Shown: in pieces, positions 4,501 through 54,800 of the stretch
Position numbering within the stretch: the first letter of the stretch is position 1
How the letters are laid out: every line of letters starts with the position of its first letter
Source of the DNA: Yuukianura sp. NJ FZ-2021
Lineage: Eukaryota
DNA: 64,000 bases
Assembly (NCBI GenBank): GCA_046563655.1
Contig: CM102287.1
Span: 1,550,001-1,614,000 of the forward strand
Direction: 5' to 3'
Translations under genes and position numbers: made by a program
Notes under the pieces: model-generated
Told to the model about the DNA's origin: nothing
What the model saw: only the letters and a program-made list of their open reading frames with translations
The model's database searches: none

Positions 4501-7500
4501 AAATTGAGTTCTAGGCACTTTATGTGGTGATCGGACTTAAATTTTCGGATTGCAATATTGTGATCCACCATAGCCCAGAATGACTTCTTTGTCACTTTTT
4601 TTGCGAAAAAATTGAATTTTTTGCGAAAAAATTGAATTTTTTCACCAAAAATTGAGTTATAGGCACTTTATATGGTTATCGGACTTAAATTTTTGGATTG
4701 AAAAATTGTGATTCAAAGTAGCATAGAATGACTTCTTTGTCACTTTTTTTGCAAAAAAATTGAATTTTTTCACCAAAAATTGAGTTCTAGGCACTTTATG
4801 TGGTGATCGGACACAAATTATCGGATTGCAAAATTGTGATCCAACATAGCCCAGAATGACTTCTTTGTCACTTTTTTTGCGAAAAAATTGAATTTTTTGC
4901 GAAAAAATTGAATTTTTCACCAAAAATTGAGTTCTAGGCACTTTATGTGGTGATCGGACTTAAATTTTCGGATTGCAATATTGTGATCCACCATAGCCCA
5001 GAATGACTCCTTTCTCACTTTTTTTGCGAAAAAATTGAATTTTTTCACCAAAAATTGAGTTATAGGCACTTTATATGGTTATCGGACTTAAATTTTCGGA
5101 TTGCAAAATTGTGATCCAACATAGCCCCGAATACCTCCTTTGTCACTTTTTTTGCGAAAAAATTGAATTTTTTGCGAAAAAATTGAATTTTTTCACCAAA
5201 AATTGAGTTCTAGGCACTTTATGTGGTGATCGGACTTAAATTTTCGGATTGCAATATTGTGATCCACCATAGCCCAGAATGACTTCTTTGTCACTTTTTT
5301 TGCGAAAAAATTGAATTTTTTGCGAAAAAATTGAATTTTTTCACCAAAAATTGAGTTATAGGCACTTTATATGGTTATCGGACTCAAATTTTCGGATTGC
5401 AAAATTGTGATCCAACGTAGCCCAGAATGACTTCTTTGTCACTTTTTTTGCGAAAAAATTGAATTTTTTCACCAAAAATTGAGTTCTAGGCACTTTATGT
5501 AGTGATCGCACTTAAATTTTCGGATTGCAAAATTGTGATCCAACATAGCCCAGAATGACTTCTTTGTCACTTTTTTTGCGACAAAATTGAATTTTTTCAC
5601 CAAAAATTGAATTTTTTCACCAAAAATTGAGTTCTAGGCACTTTATATGGTTATCGGACTCAAATTTTCGGATTGCAAAATTGTGATCCAACGTAGCCCA
5701 GAATGACTTCTTTGTCACTTTTTTTGCGAAAAAATTGAATTTTTTGCGAAAAAATTGAATTTTTTCACCAAAAATTGAGTTATAGGCACTTTATATGGTT
5801 ATCGGACTCAAATTTTCGGATTGCAAAATTGTGATCCAACGTAGCCCAGAATGACTTCTTTGTCACTTTTTTTGCGAAAAAATTGAATTTTTTCACCAAA
5901 AATTGAGTTCTAGGCACTTTATGTAGTGATCGCACTTAAATTTTCGGATTGCAAAATTGTGATCCAACATAGCCCAGAATGACTTCTTTGTCACTTTTTT
6001 TGCGACAAAATTGAATTTTTTCACCAAAAAATTGAATTTTTTCACCAAAAATTGAGTTATAGGCACTTTATATGGTTATCGGACTCAAATTTTCGGATTG
6101 CAAAATTGTGATCCAACGTAGCCCAGAATGACTTCTTTGTCACTTTTTTTGCAAAAAAATTGAATTTTTTCACCAAAAATTGAGTTCTAGGCACTTTATG
6201 TGGTGATCGCACTTAAATTTTCGGATTGCAAAATTGTGATCCAACATAGCCCCGAATACCTCCTTTGTCACTTTTTGGTGAAAAAATTGAATTTTTTGCG
6301 AAAAAATCACCAAAAATTGAGTTCTAGGCACTTTATGTGGTGATCGGACTTAAATTTTCGGATTGCAATATTGTGATCCACCATAGCCCAGAATGACTCC
6401 TTTGTCACTTTTTTTGCGAAAAAATTGAATTTTTTGCGAAAAAATTGAATTTTTTCACCAAAAATTGAGTTCTAGGCACTTTATGTGGTGATCGGACTTA
6501 AATTTTCGGATTGCAATATTGTGATCCACCATAGCCCAGAATGACTTCTTTGTCACTTTTTTTGCGAAAAAATTGAATTTTTTGCGAAAAAATTGAATTT
6601 TTCACCAAAAATTGAGTTATAGGCACTTTATATGGTTATCGGACTTAAATTTTTGGATTGAAAAATTGTGATTCAAAGTAGCATAGAATGACTTCTTTGT
6701 CACTTTTTTTGCAAAAAAATTGAATTTTTTCACCAAAAATTGAGTTCTAGGCACTTTATGTGGTGATCGGACACAAATTATCGGATTGCAAAATTGTGAT
6801 CCAACATAGCCCAGAATGACTTCTTTGTCACTTTTTTTTGCGAAAAAATTGAATTTTTTGCGAAAAAATTGAATTTTTTCACCAAAAATTGAGTTCTAGG
6901 CACTTTATGTGGTGATCGGACTTAAATTTTCGGATTGCAATATTGTGATCCACCATAGCCCAGAATGACTCCTTTCTCACTTTTTTTGCGAAAAAATTGA
7001 ATTTTTTCACCAAAAATTGAGTTATAGGCACTTTATATGGTTATCGGACTTAAATTTTCGGATTGAAAAATTGTGATCCAACGTAGCCCAGAATGACTTT
7101 GTCCCTTTTTTTGCAAAAAAATTGAATTTTTTCACCAAAAATTGAGTTCTAGGCACTTTATGTGGTGATCGGACTCAAATTTTCGGAATGCAAAATTGTG
7201 ATCCAACGTAGCCCAGAATGACTTCTTTGTCACTTTTTTTGCGAAAAAATTGAATTTCTTGCGAAAAAATTGAATTTTTTTCACCAAAAATTGAGTTCTA
7301 GGCACTTTATATGGTGATCGGACTTAAATTTTCTGATTGCAAAATTGTGATTCAAAGTAGCCCAGAATGACTTCTTTGTCACTTTTTTTGCAAAAAAATT
7401 GAATTTTTTCACCAAAATTGAGTTCTAGGCACTTTATGTGGTGATCGGACTCAAATTATCGGATTGCAAAATTGTGATCCAACATAGCCCAGAATGACTT

Positions 7501-38878: not shown

Positions 38879-41871
38879 GCCCAGAATGACTTCTTTGTCA
38901 CTTTTTTGCGAAAATATTCAATTTTTTGCGAAAAAATTGAATTTTTTCACCAAAAATTGAGTTCTAGGCACTTTATGTGGTAATCGGACTTAAATTTTCG
39001 GATTGCAATATTGTGATCCACCATAGCCCAGAATGACTCCTTTCTCACTTTTTTTGCGAAAAAATTGAATTTTTTCACCAAAAATTGAGTTCTAGGCACT
39101 TTATATGGTGATCGGACTTAAATTTTCTGATTGCAAAATTGTGATTCAAAGTAGCATAGAATGACTTCTTTGTCACTTTTTTTGCAAAAAAATTGAATTT
39201 TTTCACCAAAAATTGAGTTCTAGGCACTTTATGTGGTGATCGGACACAAATTATCGGATTGCAAAATTGTGATCCAACATAGCCCAGAATGACTTCTTTG
39301 TCACTTTTTTTTGCGAAAAAATTGAATTTTTTGCGAAAAAATTGAATTTTTTCACCAAAAATTGAGTTCCAAGCACTTTATGTGGTGATCGGGCTTAAAT
39401 TTTCTGATTGCAATATTGTGATCCACCATAGCCCAGAATGACTCCTTTCTCACTTTTTTTGCGAAAAAATTGAATTTTTCACCAAAAATTGAGTTATAGG
39501 CACTTTATATGGTGATCGGACTTAAATTTTCGGATTGAGAAATTGTGATCCAACGTAGCCCAGAATGACTTTGTCCCTTTTTTGTAAAAAAATTGAATTT
39601 TTTCACCAAAAATTGAGTTCTAGGCACTTTATGTGGTGATCGGACTCAAATTTTCGGATTGCAAAATTGTGATCCAACGTAGCCCAGAATGACTTCTTTG
39701 TCACTTTTTTTGCGAAAAAATTGAATTTTTTGCGAAAAAATTGAGTTATAGGCACTTTATATGGTTATCGGACTTAAATTTTTGGATTGAAAAATTGTGA
39801 TCCAACGTAGCCCAGAATGACTTTGTCCCTTTTTTTGTAAAAAAATTGAATTTTTCACCAAAAATTGAGTTCTAGGCACTTTATGTGGTGATCGGACTCA
39901 AATTTTCGGATTGCAAAATTGTGATCCAACGTAGCCCAGAATGACTTCTTTGTCACTTTTTTTGCGAAAAAATTGAATTTTTTTCACCAAAAATTGAGTT
40001 CTAGGCACTTTATATGGTGATCGGACTTAAATTTTCGGATTGAAAAATTGTGATCCAACGTAGCCCAGAATGACTTTGTCCCTTTTTTTGCAAAAAAAAT
40101 TGAATTTTTTCACCAAAAATTGAGTTCTAGGCACTTTATGTGGTGATCGGACTTAAATTTTCGGATTGCAATATTGTGATCCGCCACAGCCCGGAATGAC
40201 TCCTTTGTCACTTTTTTTGCGAAAAAATTGAATTTTTTCACCAAAAATTGAGTTCTAGGCACTTTATGTGGTGATCGGACTTAAATTTTCGGATTGCAAA
40301 ATTGTGATCCAACATAGCCCAGAATGACTTCTTTGTCACTTTTTTTGCAAAAAAATTGAATTTTTCACCAAAAATTGAGTTCTAGGCACTTTATGTGGTG
40401 ATCGGACTCAAATTTTCGGATTGCAAAATTGTGATCCAACGTAGCCCAGAATGACTTCTTTGTCACTTTTTTTGCGAAAAAATTGAATTTTTTGCGAAAA
40501 AATTGAGTTATAGGCACTTTATATGGTTATCGGACTTAAATTTTTGGATTGAAAAATTGTGATCCAACGTAGCCCAGAATGACTTTGTCCCTTTTTTTGT
40601 AAAAAAATTGAATTTTTCACCAAAAATTGAGTTCTAGGCACTTTATGTGGTGATCGGACTCAAATTTTCGGATTGCAAAATTGTGATCCAACGTAGCCCA
40701 GAATGACTTCTTTGTCACTTTTTTTGCGAAAAAATTGAATTTTTTTCACCAAAAATTGAGTTCTAGGCACTTTATATGGTGATCGGACTTAAATTTTCGG
40801 ATTGAAAAATTGTGATCCAACGTAGCCCAGAATGACTTTGTCCCTTTTTTTGCAAAAAAAATGGAATTTTTTCACCAAAAATTGAGTTCTAGGCACTTTA
40901 TGTGGTGATCGGACTCAAATTTTCGGATTGCAAAATTGTGATCCAACGTAGCCCAGAATGACTTCTTTGTCACTTTTTTTGCAAAAAAATTGAATTTTTT
41001 CACCAAAAATTGAGTTCTAGGCACTTTATGTGGTGATCGGACACAAATTATCGGATTGCAAAATTGTGATCCAACATAGCCCAGAATGACTTCTTTGTCA
41101 CTTTTTTTTGCGAAAAAATTGAATTTTTTGCGAAAAAATTGAATTTTTTCACCAAAAATTGAGTTCCAAGCACTTTATGTGGTGATCGGGCTTAAATTTT
41201 CTGATTGCAATATTGTGATCCACCATAGCCCAGAATGACTCCTTTCTCACTTTTTTTGCGAAAAAATTGAATTTTTTCACCAAAAATTGAGTTATAGGCA
41301 CTTTATATGGTGATCGGACTTAAATTTTCGGATTGAGAAATTGTGATCCAACGTAGCCCAGAATGACTTTGTCCCTTTTTTTGCAAAAAAAATTGAATTT
41401 TTTCACCAAAAATTGAGTTCTAGGCACTTTATGTGGTGATCGGACTCAAATTTTCGGATTACAAAATTGTGATCCAACGTAGCCCAGAATGACTTCTTTG
41501 TCACTTTTTTTGCGAAAAAATTGAATTTTTTGCGAAAAAATTGAGTTATAGGCACTTTATATGGTTATCGGACTTAAATTTTTGGATTGAAAAATTGTGA
41601 TCCAACGTAGCCCAGAATGACTTTGTCCCTTTTTTTGTAAAAAAATTGAATTTTTTCACCAAAAATTGAGTTCTAGGCACTTTATGTGGTGATCGGACTC
41701 AAATTTTCGGATTGCAAAATTGTGATCCAACGTAGCCCAGAATGACTTCTTTGTCACTTTTTTTGCGAAAAAATTGAATTTTTTCACCAAAAATTGAGTT
41801 CTAGGCACTTTATGTGGTGATCGGACTTAAATTTTCGGATTGCAAAATTGTGATCCAACATAGCCCAGAAT

Positions 41872-42154
41872 CAAGGTAAATAGAATACTTATAGGTACGG
41901 TCGTTGAAAATTGTTTGTTCAAAACTGAGTTGCTATGGGATTTCTTTGACTCCGAGTTCACTCATTTACAGTGTTGTTCAAAATTTTCAGCATTTTAGTC
42001 TCAATACTTTCGCCGCAAACTTAAAAATAGCTTAAAAACTCGGATGAACCTGTATTTTCACTCGGAGTGACGTCACTGTGAGTGAAATTGTAAACAGGTA
42101 ATAAAGATAATAAAGAATCGGTTTTGGTCGCTAAGGCATTTTTGCCGCCCCCTG
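41872..42154. mobile_element. MITE-like insert, copy 4
   Basis: Perfect GCCCAGAAT direct repeat on both sides. Confidence 0.75.
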
Positions 42155-42442
42155 GCCCAGAATGACTTCTTTGTCACTTTTTTGCGAAAATATTCAATTT
42201 TTTGCGAAAAAATTGAATTTTTCACCAAAAATTGAGTTCTAGGCACTTTATGTGGTAATCGGACTTAAATTTTCGGATTGCAATATTGTGATCCACCATA
42301 GCCCAGAATGACTCCTTTGTCACTTTTTTTGCGAAAAAATTGAATTTTTTCACCAAAAATTGAGTTCTAGGCACTTTATATGGTGATCGGACTTAAATTT
42401 TCGGATTGCAAAATTGTGATTCAAAGTAGCCCAGAATGACTT

Positions 42443-43804
42443 TGTGAGAGCACAAAAACAGAGCGTCACTTCACAAAGAGCCCTGGACGGCATACGCCAT
42501 CTAGTGAGATTTTGAGTGAAACCTCTGGAAAGATTTCACTCAAAATTCAAACCAAAACTGTTCCCGCACTTTACCGCCGCAGCACCCAGTACTTTTCCAA
42601 GCAAACAGATAGACAAAACTTAAAACTAATTATTCAACTAATTAACGCTAATTACCTAAAACTAAACTATCCTAAAAATTAACTAAAATCCTAATCTACC
42701 TAAATCACTAAACTTCCGTTACCTATCAACTACCTAAACTACCTTAATTAATGGTTGAATGTGCATGGACAAGCATGCCTTTTGGCCTAGAAAGGAGACC
42801 TTGGCCTGCCTTTCCACTGCCAGGCATGCCTTTTCGAGTACACATTGAACCAGGGGGAACCGCTGCTGAATTGATGCTTGAAGGACGACCGGGGACTACT
42901 ACAGGTATTTGCAGAGGTGGCTGGCTTCCAGCCTGCTGCAAGGTGATAGGTTGCTCGGGGTGATCCGGAGCGCCACTTAAAGTTTTCACGTTAAAATCTT
43001 TCGTCGTTAAAGTTTCGTCGTTAAAGTTTTTCACGTTTTCTTTCGCGTTTTCGGTTTTCTGTTCTTTTGTTCACCTTCAGTGACGGGAACTGCGCGTAAT
43101 TCAATTTACTTTTTGTTTCATTCAACGCGCATTAACTGGTAATTGTTTTAAATCAGTTTTCCATCAATTCAAATCAGTTTTAATCAGTTTTTCTCAGTTT
43201 AACTCGGTTTTTCTCAGTTTTTTCCAATTAATTCAATCAATTAACGCTACGCACGCGTACGCGGGTTTTCTAATTAGGATTGTCTCTGGTATTTGAACTC
43301 TGTTTTGCTCACACATTCAATTGGGTCAAAGGTCATTCGTGTTTACGTTTATTTATCTTCGAATCAGCTGACTTCTGGAATTTCTCAATTTCTTTCAATC
43401 ATTTCAAATTCAATTTAAATTAACGAGTCATTAATTGGAGTTTTGGAGTTAAAGTCAATTAGCAATTAAGATTGATTAACTGGAGAGCTTTCTGATTGGT
43501 TAACGGTTTCACGAGTCGAGTTGTCATTTTCTTTGTTGGAAGTCAAAAGTCAAAGGTCAGAGGTCGAGGTCATTGGACTGCGAGGAGAGAGGCCAAATCT
43601 ACGTGCAAATTCTCAGGTTGTTGACCCTTCTGGAGTGTGAAGTGCCTTCTATCGGCCCTTAAGAAAGAAGAAACCCTTTCTTAAGGTGAAACTACTAAGG
43701 GCCCGTCAAGTAAACGTAAGGGATAGCGAACGGAAAGGGCGGGTTTCAGATTAGAGCCGGATTTGTAGCCCTTAATTGGCCACTGGAAAATTCGTATCCT
43801 TACA
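42443..43804 (+). repeat. 5' LTR (1362 bp)
   Basis: TGTGAGAGCAC...TATCCTTACA; direct repeat of 50433-51813. Confidence 0.97.
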
Positions 43805-43806
43805 AG

Positions 43807-43823
43807 TGGGGGCTCAGACGGGA
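43807..43823 (+). promoter_or_regulatory. Primer-binding site, tRNA-Pro-like
   Basis: TGGGGGCTCAGACGGGA lies 2 nt after the 5' LTR. It resembles the tRNA-Pro PBS TGGGGGCTCGTCCGGGAT of MLV, with 3 internal differences. Confidence 0.8.
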
Positions 43824-43882
43824 AACCTTGAGTAGTAGATAGAAGGAACTGACTGAGCAAAAGCGGAAGTAACAATACAAAA

Positions 43883-45322
43883 ATGGCGCCGCGAGGAAAG
43901 AAGAACAAAAGGGCCAGGGCGAGCGTTGACTTTGAGGAGGGGGAGAGTCAGGAGAGAGAATCACGCAGAGGTTCACGCAGTCGCCAGAGTACACCACCTC
44001 CGGCTTTACCTAAAGAACAACCAGTTGTTGACAATCACGTTTCTCAATTAAATGCTGTCGATGCCATGCGCAAAGACATGGACAAACTTAAAGAACAACT
44101 CTCCGGAGTTAATGAACTTAAAGATGATTTGAAAACAATGATGGCACAGTTGGCTTCTTTGTCACTTCCGGTTGCTGAGTCGCGGAATCCGTCTCGAGTC
44201 TTTACCGAGGGGAATTCGGATGAACTTTCGAGTGACGATGAACCCTCGAGTCGTTGCCGTCGGGATTCTTCGGCCAGGCGACCGTCCAAGTCAGGGAATG
44301 TGTTGAAGGGAGGCGACATTAAGGTTCCAAAGTACAGAGGCAGTAAGGACAGGGTTCAGCCGTACGATTTCATTCTGGAGCTCAAAAAATTTCAAAAGAG
44401 TAGGGAGTTGTCGGAGCAGCAGATGCTGGATTTGGTTCTGCCCATTTCCATGGAGGGAGATGCTTCCACGTGGTATCGCTTCATTTGTCATCGGTTATTT
44501 ACTTGGACGGATTTCTGCCGAGAATTCCGAAACAAGTTCGAACCAGCCGATTTCCAGCGTCAACTCTCCAAGGCCATTCTGGATCGGTACCAAGGTAAAG
44601 AAGAGCGACTAACTGACTACATCTTGGCCATGCGCAATCTCTACAACAAGCTGACCTTCTGTCCACCGGAAGAAGAGATTCTGAAGAACATTTGGACACT
44701 TCTACACCCAGATTCTCGTCGCAGACTTGAACAAACTGGAAAACGTTACCGAACTACAATGGAGCTTTACCAAGAAGCATGCAACGTGGAGAAGAGCATC
44801 GAGCAGGACAGGGCCTACAAGGAGCCGGCGACATTTTCTCACATTGATCCAGGATTGGCATTCGCAAAACCAGAACAGACTCAGAACCGACAAGACGACA
44901 ACCGGGGACAACCCCGCAGAGATCATGCTCCCCGCTATCAGAATCAGGGTACTCAGGGCACGCAGGGCTACCAAACTCAGGGACAGCGTCCAGAATCCAA
45001 GCCTGCGCAGACTCAGGACTTGCCAGTTACCAATTCGACACCAAGAACAGAGCAACCAAGGGCTCAAGCACAGCAGAACGGCATTCCTCCGGCAAACAGC
45101 TTCGTTCCTCGCGCCACTCAAGTTTTCAAACCAGCCTACGACCGTCTCTTGCCTCCGGACATGAGACCCAGTATCAATGGCACAGGAGCCGAAGTTCCGA
45201 ACAATTCTCAACACTGTTTCAACTGCAAGGAATCCGGGCATTGGCGCCGAGACTGTCCAAAGCTTCAGAGTACGTCACAGTCGTTGCCCTCGGGAAACGG
45301 CAAAACCCCGGGTCAGCAATAA
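43883..45322 (+). CDS. gag: Gag polyprotein (479 aa): retrotransposon capsid-like region and CCHC zinc knuckle
   Basis: Capsid-like segment (VPKYRGS...GDASTWY...TWTDFCREFRNKF...YQGKEERLTDY) and CFNCKESGHWRRDC. Confidence 0.95.
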   Translation: MAPRGKKNKRARASVDFEEGESQERESRRGSRSRQSTPPPALPKEQPVVDNHVSQLNAVDAMRKDMDKLKEQLSGVNELKDDLKTMMAQLASLSLPVAESRNPSRVFTEGNSDELSSDDEPSSRCRRDSSARRPSKSGNVLKGGDIKVPKYRGSKDRVQPYDFILELKKFQKSRELSEQQMLDLVLPISMEGDASTWYRFICHRLFTWTDFCREFRNKFEPADFQRQLSKAILDRYQGKEERLTDYILAMRNLYNKLTFCPPEEEILKNIWTLLHPDSRRRLEQTGKRYRTTMELYQEACNVEKSIEQDRAYKEPATFSHIDPGLAFAKPEQTQNRQDDNRGQPRRDHAPRYQNQGTQGTQGYQTQGQRPESKPAQTQDLPVTNSTPRTEQPRAQAQQNGIPPANSFVPRATQVFKPAYDRLLPPDMRPSINGTGAEVPNNSQHCFNCKESGHWRRDCPKLQSTSQSLPSGNGKTPGQQ

Positions 45323-48300
45323 GTCCAGCTCCGATCCGGGGAAATCTCCTAACTTCCGTAGCTCCAGATCATCTTACCAATTCCGTTTCAAACTGCAATA
45401 CAGCCGAATCTTTGAGTACCGAAGTAGAGAATTCTCCACCAATAGTTTCTGTCAAAATTCTGAATCAGGCCTTCGAAGCATTGTTAGACACTGGATCGTC
45501 AATTTCTCTTGTGGGAGGTCAAATTTTGCATCTCGTTAAAACATTCAACATTCGTCTTCTAAAATCTCCTCATTCTATTCGTCAGGCAGCGGGTACTTTC
45601 ATCACAGATGAAGCAGTTGACCTCACAGTGGAGTGGCAGGGAGGAAAGTGTAAGCAGCATTTTGTCGTTAGTCCTAATTTGTCTCGTTCTGTGGTCTTGG
45701 GCAGAGATTTTCTTTCAAAGTTTAACGCCGGGGTTTTTCCTTCTGGGTGGTTGATCGGGAGTGATGACCAGCCCAAGTTTTCTTTTTCAAAATCCGAAAC
45801 TGCATTCGATTCAGACCCAAAGAATCTTCCAAATCATGCCAATTCAAAAACCAAAACGTCTCGTCGTCGGAGTGGGCTCAACAGGGGGACCACGAGTGAG
45901 CGCCCTACTGTAGGAAATGTTGGGAAGGGCGGTGATGTGACTCGCACTCATGCGCAGACCCAGGAGTCTGGCACGACGGTGGTCTCCGCTTCCCACTCTT
46001 CTTCGTTGGAGTTGTCAGGTAGTTCGGGCAATGGTCTGCTGGACATGCCGTTCTCAAATTGTGGTTTAGATGAGGGAGATGAGCTTTTGGAGTGCTCCTT
46101 GTCTGAGGGTCTTGAGAATGTTGAACTAATCGACGACTTAATGAAGGGCGTTGACCTTCCGGTTGATCACTCGAGGGAACTGCGGGGAATTATCTCAGAT
46201 TTTTCCAGTATTTTCACGAAAAAGCCGGGTTTCTGTTCTGTTTTTGAGCACCGAATCGACACTGGAGACGCAAAACCGATTTTCTGTCACCCTCGCCCTA
46301 TGACCTCAGTTAAACGAGACATTTTGCTGGACGAACTTGACAAACTGATTGCGAACGACTTGGTGGAGCCAGCGAGAAGTCCTTGGGCTTCCCACGTGCT
46401 ACTGACTCCAAAGAAGAATGGCAGTTTCCGGTTCTGTGTGGACTACCGGGAAGTCAATGCAGTCACGAAGGACGACAAGTACCCAATGCCAAGAATAGAC
46501 GACATTCTCTGTTATCTCTCTCAAGGTCACGTAATGTCAAAGTTTGATCTCTCAGATGGGTTTTTTCAAATCGGTGTGGCGGTCGAGGACCGGCCTAAGA
46601 CAGCTTTCATTACCCCTCGGGGTCTTTACCAATTTAAAAGAACGCCACAAGGGATGAAAAACTCCCCGGCAACGTTCCAAAGAGCCATGGACATGGTGAT
46701 GGACAAGTTGAGATTTAATTGTGTCCTTGGATTTTTCGATGATTTCTTGGTTTTCTCAAAGACGGTAGAAGAACACATGATTCATCTACGTGCTTTCTTT
46801 AAAACAATGTTTGAAGCAGGATTTACCATAAATCCGAAAAAAGTAGCGTTTTGTAAATCTGAAATTGACTTTCTTGGCTATGTCATTGAGGCGGGCAAAT
46901 GTCGTCCCCACCCTGACAAAGTCTCAGCCTTAACGAATTATCAAATTCCTCGAAACGTTAAAGACATTCAAAGATTTTTGGGATTCACTGGATACTATCG
47001 CCAGTTTGTCCCTGATTTCTCCATTAAAGCTGCTCCACTTTCTAAACTTCTTCGGAAGTCTGAAACTTTCAAATGGACTAAAGAATGCCAAGAGGGCTTT
47101 GATTATTTGCGGAAAACACTCCAGTCACAAGTCGAACTCAGTCTACCAGATTTGTCAAAGCCATTTTCAATTCAATGCGATGCCAGCGGACTCGGAATCG
47201 GTGCAGTACTACTCCAAGAGACAGAACAAGGAAGATCTCCAGTTTGGTTCATCAGCCGGAAGCTCAACGGGGCAGAGCTGAATTACTCCATCACAGAGAA
47301 GGAATGTCTCGCCGTAATCTACGCCGTCAAGAAATTCAAAGCGTACCTGGAATTTACCGAATTCACAATCGAAACCGATCATCAAGCGCTGACGTGGCTG
47401 CAGAAAATCAAAGAACCGACGGGACGATTGGCTAGGTGGGCTCTTGAGCTCCAAGGCTACAAGTATCAGATCAAGTACAGGTCAGGCGCACTCAACAGAA
47501 CAGCAGATGCTCTTTCTCGTGCCTTCGAAGTCCTCACACTGGAATCCGACTACATTCCGAACAAAGACGAACTAGCTCATGCACAAATTCAAGACGCAGA
47601 ACTGGGACCAATCATCAAATTTTTGAAGAACGAAGAATTGCCGGCTACGAACTCCAGAGACCACAACAACTACATTGTCCGCCGCGCAGAATCCGCTTTT
47701 GTTGACGAATCTGGCTGTTTGTACAAGTACATTGGGAACATTCACTGTCCGTGGGAAGACGACGGAACCCATTGGCGACTTTGGATTCCACATTCACTCA
47801 GAGAGACTTGCCTACGTCACTTTCATTCCAGTAAAATCGGTGGCCATCTTGGAACATCGAAAACTTACTTGAAGTTGGAGAAAAGAGTCTGGTGGAAGTC
47901 CATGCGCAAAGATACTCAAAATTTCGTCAAAAGTTGTGAAGACTGCCAACTCGCAAAAGCCTGGAAGGTGAAGCCAGCAGGATTTGGGACATCTCCAAAA
48001 GTCAAGCGGCCGTGGGAAAACCTCTACATTGATTTGATGGGCCCTTACACCAGAAGTTCGTTTCAAAACAAGTTTCTTCTCGTCGTGGTTGACAATTTTA
48101 CAAAATGGGTCGAGCTCTTTCCTCTGCGAAGCGGAACAGCAGACGTCGTCACCAAGAAACTTTGGCAAGTTTTCTGTCGCTGGGGATTTCCTTCCACCAT
48201 TGTTGCCGACAACGGACCAGCATTCGGGAAAAGTAACGTGTACAAAGACTTCTGCAAATCTTTTGGTGTCAACGCTCTCTTCATTCCACCTTACCATCCT

Positions 48301-49926
48301 CAACCAAACGTGACTGAGAGATACAACGAAACTTTAAAGTCAATGATAGTTGCGACTATCGAAAAATGTAAAGAATGGGACAGATACTTGGCAGAATTAA
48401 GCTTCGCGCTCAATTCAAGTGTCAATCAAACCATGAAATTTTCTCCAGCTTACTTAAATTTTGGACGGGAGTTGAGAACTCCGTTTGACAATGTTTTGGA
48501 AATTGCGAGTGGTCAAAGTAGTGACACTCAGGAAATGGCTGAAAGAATGAATTACGTTTGGGAATTGGCGAAAGCTAATCAACTTTCTTCTCAAAAAGAT
48601 TACATGTCACAGTACAACAAAAAGAGAAAAGAAGTGACTTATGAGATTGGAGATTTGATTCTGCGTAAATCAAGGGTGTTGTCGAACGCTGCGAAAGGAA
48701 TCACTGCCTCTCTCATGAACAAGTTCGAAGGTCCTTTTGTTGTCGCGGGAAAGAAAAATGAGACAATCCTAATGTTAAACTCAATTGGCGCGAACGAATT
48801 TGTTGGTGAAGTCCATGTTTCTGATTGCCGACCTTTCTATTGTTGCTTCCAGAATGAGCAATCTGAATCCGAACATGATTGTCGGGGGGATTCGACTTGG
48901 GGATTTGGTAATTCCACCAGTGCCGACACGAGAGCCACCTCCAATTGCATTCCCAGTGAATCCGAGCCAGTCCCAGCCTCAACCTCCACCGCCAATTCTT
49001 CCAACGTACTACGCTCCTCCTCCGAAGAAACACAAATTTGTGAGCCGATCCTCAGCACTTCGAGATGCGAAAAAGGCCGATGCCTTCAACACTGCGAGAA
49101 ATCCCAGATGGCAGACCGGGACAATCAAAGTCCAGAATTTCAATTTCAAAACGATGAACGACCACTGGCTCCAGCGTCCTCCTTCCTTCTGTATCGACCC
49201 AGGTGTGATCTCGATTTCCTTCTCCAACGAACCAGGCAAAGATGTGTACAAGAGAGACTTGACTGTTCGCGCTCCAGCCTGGGTGACGACAGATCGGCCT
49301 TACATTCAGCCAAAGGCATACGAACCACCAAAGAAACGCAGCCAAGGACTTCCAATCCGTCAAGTTCAGAAAATCATGGATGTTTTCGAGGCAGAACAGA
49401 AGCAGAAACAAGAAGATGCTCCAATGAATACCTGGCTGAAGTTCGGAGTTCCCAAGGAGAGACAGGTCGAAGCGCTTGTGAACATGGAGGAGTTTTTGGA
49501 GAAGAAGCGGAAGGAAGAACTAGAGCAGCAAAAGCCAGCCAAATTGTCGGCAGTAGCTCAAGCCGCGAAGCAGAAGGCAGCTCTGGAACGGAGGCAGATT
49601 GCCAAGAAAGCTCGACTTCGATCTCCAAGTCCTCCACAGTTCGACCTCTTTGCTCAGCCTCTCAAGTTGACTACTGCCAAAAACCCAAAGACAGTCCAGT
49701 CCAAGTTGTCAGTTCCGGTGAAGCAGATTCCATCATCTACCATTACTTCAGCCGACCTTCCGGTTCCAATGACGGTTCCAAGAACTTCCAAGTCTCCTCC
49801 AAAGAAGAAGCCAGAAGCCACCATCACTCGCCCAGAAGCCCCAATCACTCACCTAGAAGTCCCAAAAGCGGCCCCAATCATTCCATGGGTGAAAATCAAG
49901 AAGGAGAAGGGTATGACCCAGGCTGA
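45241..49926 (+). CDS. pol: Pol polyprotein (protease, RT, RNase H, integrase, plus ~350-aa C-terminal extension), probably made as Gag-Pol by frameshift near 45298
   Basis: Protease LLDTGS; RT FRFCVDYR, FDLSDGFFQI, PQGMKNSPATFQ, FFDD; RNase H CDASGLGIGAVL, NYSITEKECLA, TDHQAL; integrase H..GH..CEDC, IDLMGP, VADNG, TERYN and a GPF motif. No internal stops. Confidence 0.97.
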   Translation: MAPRLSKASEYVTVVALGKRQNPGSAISPAPIRGNLLTSVAPDHLTNSVSNCNTAESLSTEVENSPPIVSVKILNQAFEALLDTGSSISLVGGQILHLVKTFNIRLLKSPHSIRQAAGTFITDEAVDLTVEWQGGKCKQHFVVSPNLSRSVVLGRDFLSKFNAGVFPSGWLIGSDDQPKFSFSKSETAFDSDPKNLPNHANSKTKTSRRRSGLNRGTTSERPTVGNVGKGGDVTRTHAQTQESGTTVVSASHSSSLELSGSSGNGLLDMPFSNCGLDEGDELLECSLSEGLENVELIDDLMKGVDLPVDHSRELRGIISDFSSIFTKKPGFCSVFEHRIDTGDAKPIFCHPRPMTSVKRDILLDELDKLIANDLVEPARSPWASHVLLTPKKNGSFRFCVDYREVNAVTKDDKYPMPRIDDILCYLSQGHVMSKFDLSDGFFQIGVAVEDRPKTAFITPRGLYQFKRTPQGMKNSPATFQRAMDMVMDKLRFNCVLGFFDDFLVFSKTVEEHMIHLRAFFKTMFEAGFTINPKKVAFCKSEIDFLGYVIEAGKCRPHPDKVSALTNYQIPRNVKDIQRFLGFTGYYRQFVPDFSIKAAPLSKLLRKSETFKWTKECQEGFDYLRKTLQSQVELSLPDLSKPFSIQCDASGLGIGAVLLQETEQGRSPVWFISRKLNGAELNYSITEKECLAVIYAVKKFKAYLEFTEFTIETDHQALTWLQKIKEPTGRLARWALELQGYKYQIKYRSGALNRTADALSRAFEVLTLESDYIPNKDELAHAQIQDAELGPIIKFLKNEELPATNSRDHNNYIVRRAESAFVDESGCLYKYIGNIHCPWEDDGTHWRLWIPHSLRETCLRHFHSSKIGGHLGTSKTYLKLEKRVWWKSMRKDTQNFVKSCEDCQLAKAWKVKPAGFGTSPKVKRPWENLYIDLMGPYTRSSFQNKFLLVVVDNFTKWVELFPLRSGTADVVTKKLWQVFCRWGFPSTIVADNGPAFGKSNVYKDFCKSFGVNALFIPPYHPQPNVTERYNETLKSMIVATIEKCKEWDRYLAELSFALNSSVNQTMKFSPAYLNFGRELRTPFDNVLEIASGQSSDTQEMAERMNYVWELAKANQLSSQKDYMSQYNKKRKEVTYEIGDLILRKSRVLSNAAKGITASLMNKFEGPFVVAGKKNETILMLNSIGANEFVGEVHVSDCRPFYCCFQNEQSESEHDCRGDSTWGFGNSTSADTRATSNCIPSESEPVPASTSTANSSNVLRSSSEETQICEPILSTSRCEKGRCLQHCEKSQMADRDNQSPEFQFQNDERPLAPASSFLLYRPRCDLDFLLQRTRQRCVQERLDCSRSSLGDDRSALHSAKGIRTTKETQPRTSNPSSSENHGCFRGRTEAETRRCSNEYLAEVRSSQGETGRSACEHGGVFGEEAEGRTRAAKASQIVGSSSSREAEGSSGTEADCQESSTSISKSSTVRPLCSASQVDYCQKPKDSPVQVVSSGEADSIIYHYFSRPSGSNDGSKNFQVSSKEEARSHHHSPRSPNHSPRSPKSGPNHSMGENQEGEGYDPG
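45292..45341 (+). promoter_or_regulatory. -1 programmed ribosomal frameshift signal
   Basis: G GGA AAC heptamer at 45292-45298, in gag phase. After a 7-nt spacer, CCCCGGGTC (45306-45314) pairs with GATCCGGGG (45333-45341). Pol is in the -1 frame. Confidence 0.88.
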
Positions 49927-50179
49927 GGCTCCCAGACGACCTCCGAAGCTTTCCCGAGCCGACGTTGCAGATGATGACCTTCTGGAGAAGTGGAACTTCG
50001 GCGATGGAGTCAGCGCCTTCCTTCATCCTGCACTCCACCGTGGAATTGAGACGCTGACTCAAATCGAGGGATTGGAAGTTCTGGAGAAAGAGGGTAGAGA
50101 TAACTTCAGGATCAATGGAAAAATTCGAATGATGAAGAAGGAGAAATTTGGGTTCAAGGACTCGGATGAAGACGATTGA
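48854..50179 (+). CDS. ORF3: basic, Pro/Lys-rich accessory protein of unknown function (~441 aa from ATG 48854; frame open from 48785), not env-like
   Basis: Long ORF in the env position, overlapping pol in the +1 frame. No signal peptide or transmembrane segment is evident. It has several NLS-like clusters (PPKKHK, PPKKRS, PPKKKP) and is followed by an AT-rich 3'UTR. Confidence 0.75.
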   Translation: MSNLNPNMIVGGIRLGDLVIPPVPTREPPPIAFPVNPSQSQPQPPPPILPTYYAPPPKKHKFVSRSSALRDAKKADAFNTARNPRWQTGTIKVQNFNFKTMNDHWLQRPPSFCIDPGVISISFSNEPGKDVYKRDLTVRAPAWVTTDRPYIQPKAYEPPKKRSQGLPIRQVQKIMDVFEAEQKQKQEDAPMNTWLKFGVPKERQVEALVNMEEFLEKKRKEELEQQKPAKLSAVAQAAKQKAALERRQIAKKARLRSPSPPQFDLFAQPLKLTTAKNPKTVQSKLSVPVKQIPSSTITSADLPVPMTVPRTSKSPPKKKPEATITRPEAPITHLEVPKAAPIIPWVKIKKEKGMTQAEAPRRPPKLSRADVADDDLLEKWNFGDGVSAFLHPALHRGIETLTQIEGLEVLEKEGRDNFRINGKIRMMKKEKFGFKDSDEDD

Positions 50180-50419
50180 AGACATCGTTTCCTTTTCCAG
50201 TTAATGGTCATTTTTCAAATTAATTCTATCTTGTTTCCTTGCCTTCTAAGTTAGTACTCAAGAGGATTCTTCAAGTTTTTCAATTTATTCAATTATAAAT
50301 TCAGTTCTAAGTAAGAAATACTTAAATTTTTCCAAACAATTTAGAGTCACAGTTACTTTGTAAATAGTATTAGAGTCTGCTAAATAATATTTCTCAACAC
50401 GATGACTTTCGGGCCAATT

Positions 50420-50431
50420 GGAGGGGGGAAG
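50420..50431 (+). promoter_or_regulatory. Polypurine tract
   Basis: GGAGGGGGGAAG, 1 nt before the 3' LTR. Confidence 0.92.
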
Positions 50432-50432
50432 T

Positions 50433-51813
50433 TGTGAGAGCACAAAAACAGAGCGTCACTTCACAAAGAGCCCTGGACGGCATACGCCATCTAGTGAGAA
50501 TTTGAGTGAAACCTCTGGAAAGATTTCACTCAAAATTCAAACCAAAACTGTTCCCGCACTTTACCGCCGCAGCACCCAGTACTTTTCCAAGCAAACAGAT
50601 AGACAAAACTTAAAACTAATTATCCAACTAATTAACGCTAATTAACTTAAACTAAAATATCCTACAAATTAACTAAAATCCTAATCTACCTAAATCACTA
50701 AAGTTCCGTTACCTATCAACTACCTAAACTACCTTAATTAATGGTTCAATGTGCATGGACAAGCATGCCTTTTGGCCTAGAAAGTAGACCTTGGCCTGAC
50801 TTTCCACTGCCATGCATGCCTTTTCCAGTATACGTTGAACCAGGGGGAACCGCTGCTGAATTGATGCGTGAAGGACGACCGGGGACTACTACAGGTATTT
50901 GCAGAGGTGGCTGGCTTCCAGCCTGCTGCAAGGTGTTTGGTTGCTCGGGGTGATCCGGAGCGCCACTTAAAGTTTTCACGTTAAAATTCTTTTTCGTCGT
51001 TAAAGTCGTTTTCGTCGTTAAAGTTTTCGCGTTTTCTTTCGCGTTTTCGGTTTTCTGTTCTTTTGTTCACCTTCAGTGACGGGAACTGCGCGTAAATCAA
51101 TTTCTTTTTGTTTCATTCAACGCGCATTAACTTGTAATTGTTTTAAATCCGTTTTCCATTAATTCAAATCAGTTTTAAATCAGTTTTAATCGGTTTTTCT
51201 CAGTTTGATTCAGCTTTTATCGATTTTTCACAATTAATTCAATCAATTAACGCTACGCACGCGTACGCGGGTTTTCTAATTAGGATTGTCTCTGGTATTT
51301 GAACTCTGTTTTGCTCACACATTCAATTGGGTCAAAGGTTATTCGTGTTTACGTTTATTTATCTTCGAATCAGCTGACTTCTGGAATTTCTCAATTTCTT
51401 TCAATCATTTCAAATTCAATTTAAATTAACGAGTCATTAATTGGAGTTAATTGGAGTTTTCGGTCACCTAGCAATTAAGATTGATTAACTGGAGAGCTTT
51501 CTGATTGGTTAACGGTTTCACGAGTCGAGTTGTCATTTCCTTTGTTGGAAGTCAAAAGTCAAAGGTCAGAGGTCGAGGTCATTGGACTGCGAGGAGAGAG
51601 GCCAAATCTACGTGCAAATTCTCAGGTTGTTGACCCTTCTGGAGTGTGAAGTGCCTTCTATCGGCCCTTAAGAAAGAAGAAACCCTTTCTTAAGGTGAAA
51701 CTACTAAGGGCCCGTCAAGTAAACGTAAGGGATAGCGAACGGAAAGGGCGGGTTTCAGATTAGAGCCGGATTTGTAGCCCTTAATTGGCCACTGGAAAAT
51801 TCGTATCCTTACA
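50433..51813 (+). repeat. 3' LTR (1381 bp)
   Basis: TGTGAGAGCAC...TATCCTTACA, followed by TSD ACTT and resumption of the interrupted monomer. Confidence 0.97.
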
Positions 51814-54800
51814 ACTTCTTTGTCACTTTTTTTGCAAAAAAAATTGAATTTTTCCCTAAAAATTGAGTTCTAGGCACTAGGTGATCGGACTAAAATTTTC
51901 GGATTGCAAAATTGTGATCCACCGCAGCCCAGAAGGACTTTGTCACTTTTTTTTGCAAAAAAATTGTATTTTTTCACCAAAAATTGAGTTATAGGCACTT
52001 TATGTGGTTATCGGACTTAAATTTTCGGATTGAAAAATTGTGATCCAACGTAGCCCAGAATGACTTTGTCCCTTTTTTTGCAAAAAAATTGAATTTTTTC
52101 ACCAAAAATTGAGTTCTAGGCACTTTATATGGTTATCGGACTTAAATTTTCGGATTGCAATATTGTGATCCACCATAGCCCAGAATGACTCCTTTGTCAC
52201 TTTTTTTGCGAAAAAATTGAATTTTTTCACCAAAAATTGAGTTATAGGCACTTTATATGGTTATCGGACTTAAATTTTTGGATTGAAAAATTGTGATCCA
52301 ACGTAGCCCAGAATGACTTTGTCCCTTTTTTTTGTAAAAAAATTGAATTTTTTCACCAAAAATTGAGTTCTAGGCACTTTATGTGGTGATCGGACTCAAA
52401 TTTTCGGATTGCAAAATTGTGATCCAACGTAGCCCAGAATGACTTCTTTGTCACTTTTTTTGCGAAAAAATTGAATTTTTTCACCAAAAATTGAGTTCTA
52501 GGCACTTTATATGGTGATCGGACTTAAATTTTCTGATTGCAAAATTGTGATTCAAAGTAGCATAGAATGACTTCTTTGTCACTTTTTTTGCAAAAAATTG
52601 AATTTTTTCACCAAAAATTGAGTTATAGGCACTTTATATGGTTATCGGACTTAAATTTTCGGATTGAAAAATTGTGATCCAACGTAGCCCAGAATGACTT
52701 TGTCCCTTTTTTTGCAAAAAAAATTGAATTTTTTCACCAAAAATTGAGTTCTAGGCACTTTATGTGGTGATCGGACTCAAATTTTCGGATTGCAAAATTG
52801 TGATCCAACGTAGCCCAGAATGACTTCTTTGTCACTTTTTTTGCGAAAAAATTGAATTTTTTTCACCAAAAATTGAGTTCTAGGCACTTTATATGGTGAT
52901 CGGACTTAAATTTTCTGGATTGCAAAATTGTGATTCAAAGTAGCATAGAATGACTTCTTTGTCACTTTTTTTGCAAAAAAATTGAATTTTTTCACCAAAA
53001 ATTGAGTTCTAGGCACTTTATGTGGTGATCGGACACAAATTATCGGATTGCAAAATTGTGATCCAACATAGCCCAGAATGACTTCTTTGTCACTTTTTTT
53101 TGCGAAAAAATTGAATTTTTTGCGAAAAAATTGAATTTTTTGCGAAAAAATTGAATTTTTTCACCAAAAATTGAGTTCCAATCACTTTATGTGGTGATCG
53201 GGCTTAAATTTTCTGATTGCAATATTGTGATCCACCATAGCCCAGAATGACTCCTTTCTCACTTTTTTTGCGAAAAAATTGAATTTTTTCACCAAAAATT
53301 GAGTTATAGGCACTTTATATGGTGATCGGACTTAAATTTTCGGATTGAGAAATTGTGATCCAACGTAGCCCAGAATGACTTTGTCCCTTTTTTTGGAAAA
53401 AAATTGAATTTTTTGCGAAAAAATTGAATTTTTTCACCAAAAATTGAGTTATAGGCACTTTATATGGTGATCGGACTTAAATTTTTGGATTGAAAAATTG
53501 TGATCCAACGTAGCCCAGAATGACTTTGTCCCTTTTTTTGTAAAAAAATTGAATTTTTTCACCAAAAATTGAGTTCTAGGCACTTTATGTGGTGATCGGA
53601 CTCAAATTTTCGGATTGCAAAATTGTGATCCAACGTAGCCCAGAATGACTTCTTTGTCACTTTTTTTGCGAAAAAAATTGAATTTTTTCACCAAAAATTG
53701 AGTTCTAGGCACTTTATATGGTGATCGGACTTAAATTTTCGGATTGCAAAATTGTGATTCAAAGTAGCATAGAATGACTTCTTTGTCACTTTTTTTGCAA
53801 AAAATTGAATTTTTTCAGCAAAAATTGAGTTATAGGCACTTTATATGGTTATCGGACTTAAATTTTCGGATTGAAAAATTGTGATCCAACGTAGCCCAGA
53901 AGGACTTTGTCCCTTTTTTTTGCAAAAAAATTGAATTTTTTCACCAAAAATTGAGTTCTAGGCACTTTATGTGGTGATCGGACTCAAATTTTCGGATTGC
54001 AAAATTGTGATCCAACGTAGCCCAGAATGACTTCTTTGTCACTTTTTTTGCGAAAAAATTGAATTTTTTCACCAAAAATTGAGTTCTAGGCACTTTATAT
54101 GGTGATCGGACTTAAATTTTCTGATTGCAAAATTGTGATTCAAAGTAGCATAGAATGACTTCTTTGTCACTTTTTTTGCAAAAAAATTGAATTTTTTCAC
54201 CAAAAATTGAGTTATAGGCACTTTATATGGTGATCGGACTTAAATTTTTGGATTGAAAAATTGTGATCCAACGTAGCCCAGAATGACTTTGTCCCTTTTT
54301 TTGTAAAAAAAATTGAATTTTTTCACCAAAAATTGAGTTCTAGGCACTTTATATGGTGATCGGACTTAAATTTTCTGATTGCAAAATTGTGATTCAAAGT
54401 AGCATAGAATGACTTCTTTGTCACTTTTTTTGCAAAAAATTGAATTTTTTCACCAAAAATTGAGTTATAGGCACTTTATATGGTGATCGGACTTAAATTT
54501 TTGGATTGAAAAATTGTGATCCAACGTAGCCCAGAATGACTTTGTCCCTTTTTTGTAAAAAAAATTGAATTTTTTCACCAAAAATTGAGTTCTAGGCACT
54601 TTATGTGGTGATCGGACTCAAATTTTCGGATTGCAAAATTGTGATCCAACGTAGCCCAGAATGACTTCTTTGTCACTTTTTTTGCGAAAAAATTGAATTT
54701 TTTCACCAAAAATTGAGTTCTAGGCACTTTATATGGTGATCGGACTTAAATTTTCTGATTGCAAAATTGTGATTCAAAGTAGCATAGAATGACTTCTTTG

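Follow-up and report, generated by a model that had tools for sequence, protein, structure and literature searches.

A non-env third open reading frame in a Ty3/gypsy element shares about one kilobase with a pol-frame tail kept free of stop codons

Third open reading frames (ORFs) of retrotransposons with long terminal repeats (LTRs) are as a rule expressed via spliced transcripts, and those of the Vesta, Juno and TelKA elements of bdelloid rotifers are not env genes, being instead of GDSL, DEDDy, coiled-coil and transmembrane (TM) types (PMC5408684). CERV, encoded by the Ty3/gypsy element Cer1 of C. elegans, is described as an orphan nuclear protein, produced from a spliced mRNA and needed for export of the unspliced genomic RNA; it overlaps gag, with one of its five exons in another frame, and is predicted to form globular domains, including a GTPase-like one (PMC10309623). 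In hepadnaviruses the envelope ORF is nested in the polymerase ORF (PMC5604429). We analysed a 64,000-nt stretch of Yuukianura sp. NJ FZ-2021 (GenBank assembly GCA_046563655.1, contig CM102287.1, positions 1,550,001 to 1,614,000, forward strand), referred to as the window and numbered from its first letter. It carries an intact Ty3/gypsy element with LTRs, a target site duplication (TSD), a primer-binding site (PBS), a polypurine tract (PPT), gag, and a pol gene encoding protease, reverse transcriptase (RT), RNase H and integrase (42443-51813). The third ORF of this element, ORF3, is very probably a real, selected, non-env gene overlapping a C-terminal pol extension, the pol tail, that selection keeps open.

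The conserved integrase of the element finishes near position 48777 (...GPFVVAGKKN...VHVSDCRPFY). The ORF3 frame is open from stop to stop over 466 codons (48779-50179), and the pol frame (44848-49926) overlaps it by 1148 nt. A conserved second ATG at 48854 gives a protein of 441 residues, compared with 454 from the first ATG at 48815; the start assigned in the original prediction, 48785, falls within the open frame and is neither its first codon nor an ATG. With integrase upstream and the PPT downstream, ORF3 occupies the env slot, as had been proposed. It had also been treated as a free-standing gene, a view that has to be given up: about 1.15 kb is common to ORF3 and a pol-frame extension kept open, and this overlap changes what needs explaining about ORF3.

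Relatives with the same layout surfaced when metagenome contigs were queried with the integrase. Seventeen loci were recovered, two of which, L001 and L002, have integrases 69% and 68% identical to that of the window element over all 426 queried residues. The pol frame of L001 is open to 3886 and is accompanied by a +1 ORF of 391 codons at 2877-4052; that of L002 is open to 4857, with a +1 ORF of 409 codons at 3794-5023. The products of these ORFs can be aligned with the ORF3 protein of the window at 27% (L001) and 22% (L002) identity. In both relatives ORF3 extends about 55 codons beyond the pol stop and is followed by an AT-rich spacer, the same PPT and an LTR beginning TGTGAG. None of the remaining 15 loci has the pol-tail/ORF3 layout; they are short, interrupted or only distantly related (25-47% identity). 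ORF3 is an accessory gene confined to one Ty3/gypsy lineage.

The pol tail stays open for 335-382 codons past integrase in all three elements, giving an overlap of about 1.0-1.15 kb. In the window it has no stop codon where 18.5 ± 3.1 are expected, and none of 3000 synonymous shuffles of ORF3 left it stop-free. The tails of L001 and L002 likewise have no stops, against 13.8 and 13.2 expected, with 0 of 2000 stop-free shuffles in each. When the tail protein was held fixed instead, the ORF3 frame was stop-free in 4.7%, 3.9% and 5.8% of shuffles (window, L001 and L002, respectively). Both frames are thus open beyond chance in three elements whose ORF3 proteins are homologous.

The way in which stops are avoided can be read from the ORF3 codons. 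A stop arises in the pol frame where an ORF3 codon ending in T precedes a codon starting with AA, AG or GA. Within the window overlap such a start follows 0 of 86 T-ending ORF3 codons, compared with 99 of 295 other codons (p 1.2e-13). The corresponding counts are 0/63 versus 87/272 in L001 and 0/64 versus 88/289 in L002, and p ranges from 1e-9 to 1e-13 across the three elements. Codons starting with AC, AT, GC, GG or GT are common after T-ending ORF3 codons (26 of 86 in the window overlap); therefore the avoidance is specific to stops. It is just mild in gag and in the pol core, where the same stop-forming context occurs at 20 of 119 and 47 of 243 positions. Moreover, avoidance ceases at the pol TGA: past this codon, 6 of 21 T-ending ORF3 codons in the window precede AA, AG or GA, and pol-frame stops return at normal density, with seven between 49924 and 50167.

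Amino-acid selection was estimated in each frame from the ratio of non-synonymous to synonymous divergence (dN/dS), using the Nei-Gojobori method (NG86) on L001 versus L002. The pol core gave a dN/dS of 0.04 (859 codons, dS 1.23). The ORF3 frame gave 0.20 both within the overlap (313 codons, dS 1.34) and beyond the pol stop (54 codons, dS 1.53), whereas the pol-tail frame gave 0.91 (318 codons, dS 0.46). Differences at codon positions 1, 2 and 3 were 0.071, 0.036 and 0.391 in the pol core, and 0.232, 0.241 and 0.452 in the overlap when counted by ORF3 codons. The third-position excess in the overlap therefore belongs to the ORF3 frame, being at the first position of pol codons, and the tail has no third-position excess of its own. 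Synonymous sites of ORF3 keep pace with those of pol, so that no constraint from the tail is visible at these sites. Because of the overlap the dN/dS of the tail is biased upward, which leaves room for a weak constraint on its residues. ORF3, which is conserved and under selection, is the frame with selected amino acids, whereas the pol tail is selected only against stops; selection on the amino acids of both products is not what we find. The tail is open in three lineages with saturated synonymous sites, yet its amino acids drift. The arrangement is a conserved dual coding of about 1.0-1.15 kb in which one frame is kept only open.

Variation among copies of the family was followed in contigs of three DNA runs, X1 to X3, aligned on 45300-50432 (255 pieces). 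X1 and X2 share one sample, from which the assembly possibly derives, and X3 stands under another organism label. Among the variants listed, 40 of 398 differences, six of the eight in the overlap are synonymous in ORF3 and none of the eight in pol. By comparison, 11 of 13 listed variants are synonymous in pol at 46002-47913, and 18 of 32 at 45357-47913. The listed indels leave 48662 to 50192 free, and four to five fall at 50193-50211, within about 35 nt past the ORF3 stop. Frequent disruption of ORF3 had been named as an outcome that would count against the original proposal; no frameshifting indel is listed in it among the 255 pieces, and one contig skips 325 nt.

The two frames differ in composition and codon usage. 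The pol tails have isoelectric points (pI) of 5.0-5.6 and are rich in Ser, Pro, Glu, Gly and Arg; from the genetic code, we infer that this acidic composition follows largely from ORF3 codons read one base earlier. By relative synonymous codon usage, the ORF3 frame is closest to the rest of the element (correlation 0.53), followed by the pol tail (0.30) and the third frame (0.20). If one frame arose by overprinting the other, codon usage favours ORF3 as the most element-like frame (r 0.53 versus 0.30). Openness points the opposite way, ORF3 being open in about 4-6% of shuffles given the tail, and the tail in 0 of 7000 given ORF3. The evidence on which frame came first is split; no relative with only one of the two frames was found.

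The ORF3 protein is basic (pI 9.88), with 11.9% Pro, 10.6% Lys and a single Cys in 454 residues. The features read from its translation in the original prediction are present, namely a Pro-rich N-terminus, a WQTGTIKVQNFNF...ISISFS...DLTVRAPAW block, a EEFLEKKRKEELEQQK helix, a P/K/T-rich linker and an acidic end, as are the clusters resembling nuclear localisation signals (NLS), KKR at 173-175, KKRK at 230-233 and KKK at 330-332. The highest 19-residue Kyte-Doolittle mean is 0.92 in the window, 0.93 in L001 and 1.45 in L002, the last at the N-terminus and set by integrase codons. Since no 19-residue mean exceeds 0.92 in the window protein, it has no membrane helix, in agreement with the earlier reading; the ORF3 proteins of all three elements have pI values of 9.7-9.9 and no TM segment. 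AlphaFold2 run on the single sequence was confident only for central helices (H214-266, predicted local distance difference test, pLDDT, about 70-82; mean 48.4). With three sequences, helices were placed at about 193-279 (pLDDT 60-81; mean 45.1). The block described earlier as β-rich exists in the sequence, but AlphaFold2 gives it just two short strands of low confidence. The product is predicted to be mostly disordered apart from long central helices, and a short C-terminal region of motifs is conserved. A clear leucine-rich export signal common to the three ORF3 proteins was not seen.

Database searches returned no relative of ORF3 other than those in L001 and L002. Pfam gave no family for the window protein at E up to 1 or for that of L001 at E up to 0.1, and the sole match of L002, TrmB (E 0.042, 14.1 bits), is under the family cut-off. 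Nothing was found among PDB sequences (best E 0.73 with phmmer and 0.12 with a profile), and neither Pfam nor the PDB profile indicated an RNA-binding or other known domain. The three ORF3 proteins were aligned with MAFFT (alignment A1). Neither the single sequence nor A1 detected a relative in the near-length class of 5.8 billion clustered proteins; an exhaustive phmmer search of 1.84 billion representatives had no match, and the ESM Atlas held no relative. IMG/VR contigs matched neither ORF3, A1 nor the integrase, and prokaryote genome contigs did not match A1. Metagenome contigs queried with ORF3 itself gave none, its relatives surfacing only through the integrase query. The pol tail, also searched as part of the pol region, has no Pfam family and no homologue. 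The call of a non-env protein is upheld by the lack of a TM segment and of Pfam, PDB or other homologues, and a match to an env or other characterised family, which would have spoken against it, was not found. Three identities considered for ORF3 were set aside: an env glycoprotein was rejected, with no membrane anchor by hydropathy and no similarity to env or fusion families; a gag duplicate was rejected on a best BLASTP E of 0.18; and a bdelloid-type enzyme (GDSL lipase or DEDDy exonuclease) had no Pfam match.

As to how ORF3 is expressed, all three elements have a pyrimidine tract and CAG at the end of integrase, followed after 1-7 nt by an in-frame ATG with A at -3. The arrangement suggests a 3′ splice site and, close behind it, the first ATG that a subgenomic mRNA would contain. 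Gag-Pol, including the tail, would be read from unspliced RNA, and ORF3 from a spliced subgenomic mRNA whose acceptor would be the tract and CAG ending at 48852, just ahead of the ATG at 48854. The product may act in the nucleus on the nucleic acid of the element itself, most likely by regulating or exporting the intron-containing genomic RNA, in the manner of Rev and CERV. An element that splices its RNA needs export of the unspliced form, and a basic, helix-bearing, fast-evolving orphan in this position would be a reasonable candidate for that task. We modestly favour the account as a whole, in which a selected non-env ORF3 lies over an open pol tail, is expressed by splicing and encodes a nuclear regulator. 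Among its parts, we judge spliced expression to be evenly balanced on these sequence signals, while a Rev- or CERV-like role as a nuclear nucleic-acid-binding regulator, proposed by analogy, is tentative and rather doubtful.

Several observations weigh against this account. It gives no reason for keeping the pol tail open. The conservation of ORF3 rests on three lineages, two of them from one metagenome, and the variant figures on the subset of differences given above. The pyrimidine tract encodes the conserved integrase residues RPF(F/Y)-Q; thus its conservation is not independent evidence of splicing. The candidate donor is weak (GTAACA), and its region is absent from L001 and L002. The AlphaFold2 means of 48.4 and 45.1 yield no fold for ORF3, and its function is assigned from charge, K/R clusters and analogy. 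Finally, parts of ORF3 vary in structure. The X1 contig with the 325-nt skip passes from 48926 to 49252, and in X3 nothing covers about 48912-49427 at 80% likeness, with both flanks covered and one contig turning unlike the window at 48926. X3 seems to have either another sequence in place of the N-terminal third of ORF3 or a far more diverged one. Loose ends occur at 48926 and around a 21-nt repeat at 49811-49865, those of X1 and X3 at about 49710-49812. The skip, the gap and the loose ends together show that the N-terminal third and the repeat region are structurally variable among copies. One X1 contig bears extra letters at the repeat, which suggests in-frame variation in the copy number of a 7-residue unit.

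An alternative that starts from the tail is rather unlikely. Here the tail would be a length- or translation-dependent device, tethering nascent Pol to its own RNA or carrying ribosomes to a +1 shift at the TGA, and ORF3 would have been overprinted on it as a hepadnavirus-like nested gene. The hepadnavirus P 'spacer' lying over preS tolerates change. A need for length only, as a linker or pro-domain, or for ribosome transit is speculation. We also consider unlikely the function first put forward for ORF3, that of a chromatin-binding factor which, in a VANC-like role, would counter silencing or provide tethering, directing or protecting copies in heterochromatic satellite. VANC is an anti-silencing protein of VANDAL transposons. 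The K/R clusters of a basic protein fit it, as does the location of this copy in a 127-bp satellite; fast evolution (27% and 22% identity in ORF3, compared with 68-69% in integrase) is what host conflict would produce. However, ORF3 has no homology to a chromatin reader or DNA-binding domain, and unrelated elements also lie in the same satellite, so that location need not reflect targeting.

Tethering could also come about through a fusion, a reading that we regard as improbable. With no start of its own, ORF3 would be reached by a +1 shift at the end of integrase and form a C-terminal integrase targeting or tethering domain, playing the part of the chromodomain in chromoviruses, and the position of the element in a satellite array fits this idea. 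Relative to pol, ORF3 lies in the +1 frame in all three elements, and this frame becomes open just as integrase ends, 36 nt upstream of the first ATG; the pol codons CAT GTT dictate that ATG, so it is no evidence for initiation there. Against the fusion, no recognisable shift site was seen, the second in-frame ATG with A at -3 is kept where pol conservation has ended, and 335-382 further open pol codons are left without a reason. Equally improbable is a particle-associated ORF3 product serving as a second nucleic-acid chaperone or scaffold: many chaperones of this kind are, like ORF3, basic, disordered and helix-containing, but gag already has a zinc knuckle and ORF3 does not resemble gag (best BLASTP E 0.18).

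A merging of the two frames at the far end of the tail is very unlikely. The tail would be a sequence-agnostic linker, and a +1 shift at the conserved TGA would add the last 55-84 codons of ORF3 to integrase. This would account for selection on the tail against stops only (dN/dS 0.91, 0 stops). ORF3 is in the required +1 frame, and all three pol frames end in TGA-G over ORF3 '..T GAG', just before the PPKL/acidic part, a correspondence aligned by eye because A1 is ambiguous there. However, the codons ahead of the TGA differ (GGC, CCA and UCA) and are not known as +1 shift sites, the 126 nt past the TGA fold no better than shuffles (z 1.16, -1.43 and 0.32), and a TGA easily arises wherever GAN codons come after T. 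Finally, a real pol tail with an accidental ORF3 permitted by the tail's composition is highly improbable, since, although the tail-fixed shuffles make openness of the overlap alone not very improbable, the dN/dS of 0.20 against 0.91, the third-position excess in the ORF3 frame, the variants synonymous in ORF3 (6/8) and not in pol (0/8), and the run of 55-84 codons beyond the pol stop in three elements, with the same dN/dS past it, all speak against it.

The features of the element are listed in Table 1.

Table 1. Features of the Ty3/gypsy element, in window positions
Feature	Position	Strand	Basis or remark
TSD ACTT, left copy	42439..42442	+	read directly; right copy at 51814-51817
5′ LTR, TG...CA	42443..43804	+	blastn between LTRs, ends read
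PBS-like site TGGGGGCTCAGACGGG	43807..43822	+	two bases past the 5′ LTR; assigned from position and TGG start, no tRNA matched
Candidate splice donor GGAA/GTAACA (cut 43868/43869)	43869..43874	+	12 nt upstream of the gag ATG; putative
gag, 479 aa	43883..45322	+	Retrotrans_gag PF03732 E 4.7e-08; zf-CCHC PF00098 E 1.6e-06
Conserved portion of the pol frame (protease, RT, RNase H, integrase)	44848..48777	+	-1 frame relative to gag; RVP, RVT_1, RT_RNaseH, Integrase_H2C2, rve
pol-frame tail, 382 codons past integrase, acidic, Ser-rich, stop-free	48778..49926	+	terminates at TGA 49924-49926
ORF3, 454 aa from first ATG	48815..50179	+	+1 frame relative to pol; homologues in L001 and L002
Pyrimidine tract and CAG, candidate 3′ splice site	48832..48852	+	end of integrase codons; equivalent CCCTTTCTTTCAG in L001 and L002
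21-nt tandem repeat, 2.6 copies, inside ORF3	49811..49865	+	encodes a 7-residue repeat
ORF3 C-terminal part free of pol overlap, 84 codons and stop	49927..50179	+	EKWNF..GRDNF..acidic end
AT-rich untranslated spacer, ORF3 to PPT	50180..50419	+	indels of family copies cluster at 50193-50211
PPT GGAGGGGGGAAG	50420..50431	+	kept, with LTR start TGTGAG, in L001 and L002
3′ LTR	50433..51813	+	followed by TSD ACTT 51814-51817

The assignment to Ty3/gypsy LTR elements (Metaviridae) is based on the TG..CA ends, the short TSD, the PBS-like site and the PPT, on the capsid and zinc knuckle of gag, and on the order protease, RT, RNase H and integrase in pol. In blastn the two LTRs align over 1386 columns at 95.7% identity, with 35 mismatches and 11 gap openings, and no second copy of the element is present within the 64-kb window. 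Almost the entire window is made up of an AT-rich satellite (about 32% G+C) with a basic period of about 127 bp and a higher-order period of about 253 bp (40000-42442 and 51818-54000). The element breaks this array as a 9371-bp insertion of raised G+C, and its insertion point lies inside one satellite monomer (...AATG ACTT, then CTTTGTCAC). The first 1000 positions of the window are non-satellite, richer in G+C and unlike the studied element, with an Asp-rich codon run (GATGATGACGATGATGAC...), and are probably the end of another inserted element. At about 1190-1830 the satellite holds a piece of about 0.65 kb that ends in about 23 A and resembles a non-LTR retrotransposon at its 3′ end; several unrelated elements therefore inhabit this satellite.

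Two further observations concern other parts of the element. Between L001 (4053-4338) and L002 (5024-5313), the region equivalent to window 50180-50520, comprising the spacer, the PPT and the LTR start, differs at just 12.5-17% of sites. ORF3 third positions differ at 45-56% between the same relatives, far above the downstream spacer. The low divergence suggests a constrained cis-acting region, or recent exchange there. In the stretch between protease and RT, at 45833-45945, 11 of 14 listed differences among family copies alter an amino acid, and contig depth rises about six-fold at 45816-45987. These figures may reflect a variable linker or a brief segment that other repeats share.

Extra ORFs are known in LTR retrotransposons, few of them with a function, and those overlapping pol are hidden by gene callers. 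ORF3 is a case in point, missing from both large protein collections though the contigs that encode it are public. It is a selected orphan accessory protein in at least three diverged elements and a candidate for Rev-like regulation, which in Ty3/gypsy, as far as the cited texts go, has so far been shown only for CERV of Cer1. The pol tail offers a clean natural case of drifting amino acids in a long frame that selection keeps open, and raises the question of what role translation through a polymerase tail, or its sheer length, plays in a retroelement. Non-env third ORFs are already known, as are nested or overlapping genes in retroviruses and hepadnaviruses. Within the literature outside subscription journals, no Ty3/gypsy family turned up in which an accessory gene and a pol extension share about 1 kb of conserved dual coding and the tail is selected only to stay open.

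The bdelloid ORF3s resemble that of the window element in being family-specific non-env third ORFs placed after pol, in the env slot; here, in contrast, there is no GDSL or DEDDy homology and 1.0-1.15 kb is common with an open pol frame (PMC5408684). The word 'overlap' is absent from the main text of that source. Env genes of errantiviruses and metazoan Ty3/gypsy elements share the position between integrase and PPT and, probably, expression by splicing, whereas ORF3 has no signal peptide or TM anchor by hydropathy, one Cys in 454 residues and no env family match (PMC13524379). The hepadnavirus case is alike in that a second protein is encoded by an ORF of about 1.1 kb within the replicase frame of a reverse-transcribing element, and unlike in that the nested gene there encodes an envelope protein (PMC5604429). 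It also differs in the reason for openness, since essential RT and RNase H domains downstream of the overlap explain the open P frame, whereas nothing recognisable lies past the pol tail here. CERV differs from ORF3, which is likened to it by description, in that ORF3 lies over a pol extension, seems to consist of a single exon behind an acceptor and has no confident fold (PMC10309623). Both are nonetheless orphan, fast-evolving Ty3/gypsy accessory proteins encoded partly in an alternative frame over a structural gene, and CERV, with its own NLS-like basic residues and helical multimerisation region, provides the model for a Rev-like role (PMC10309623).

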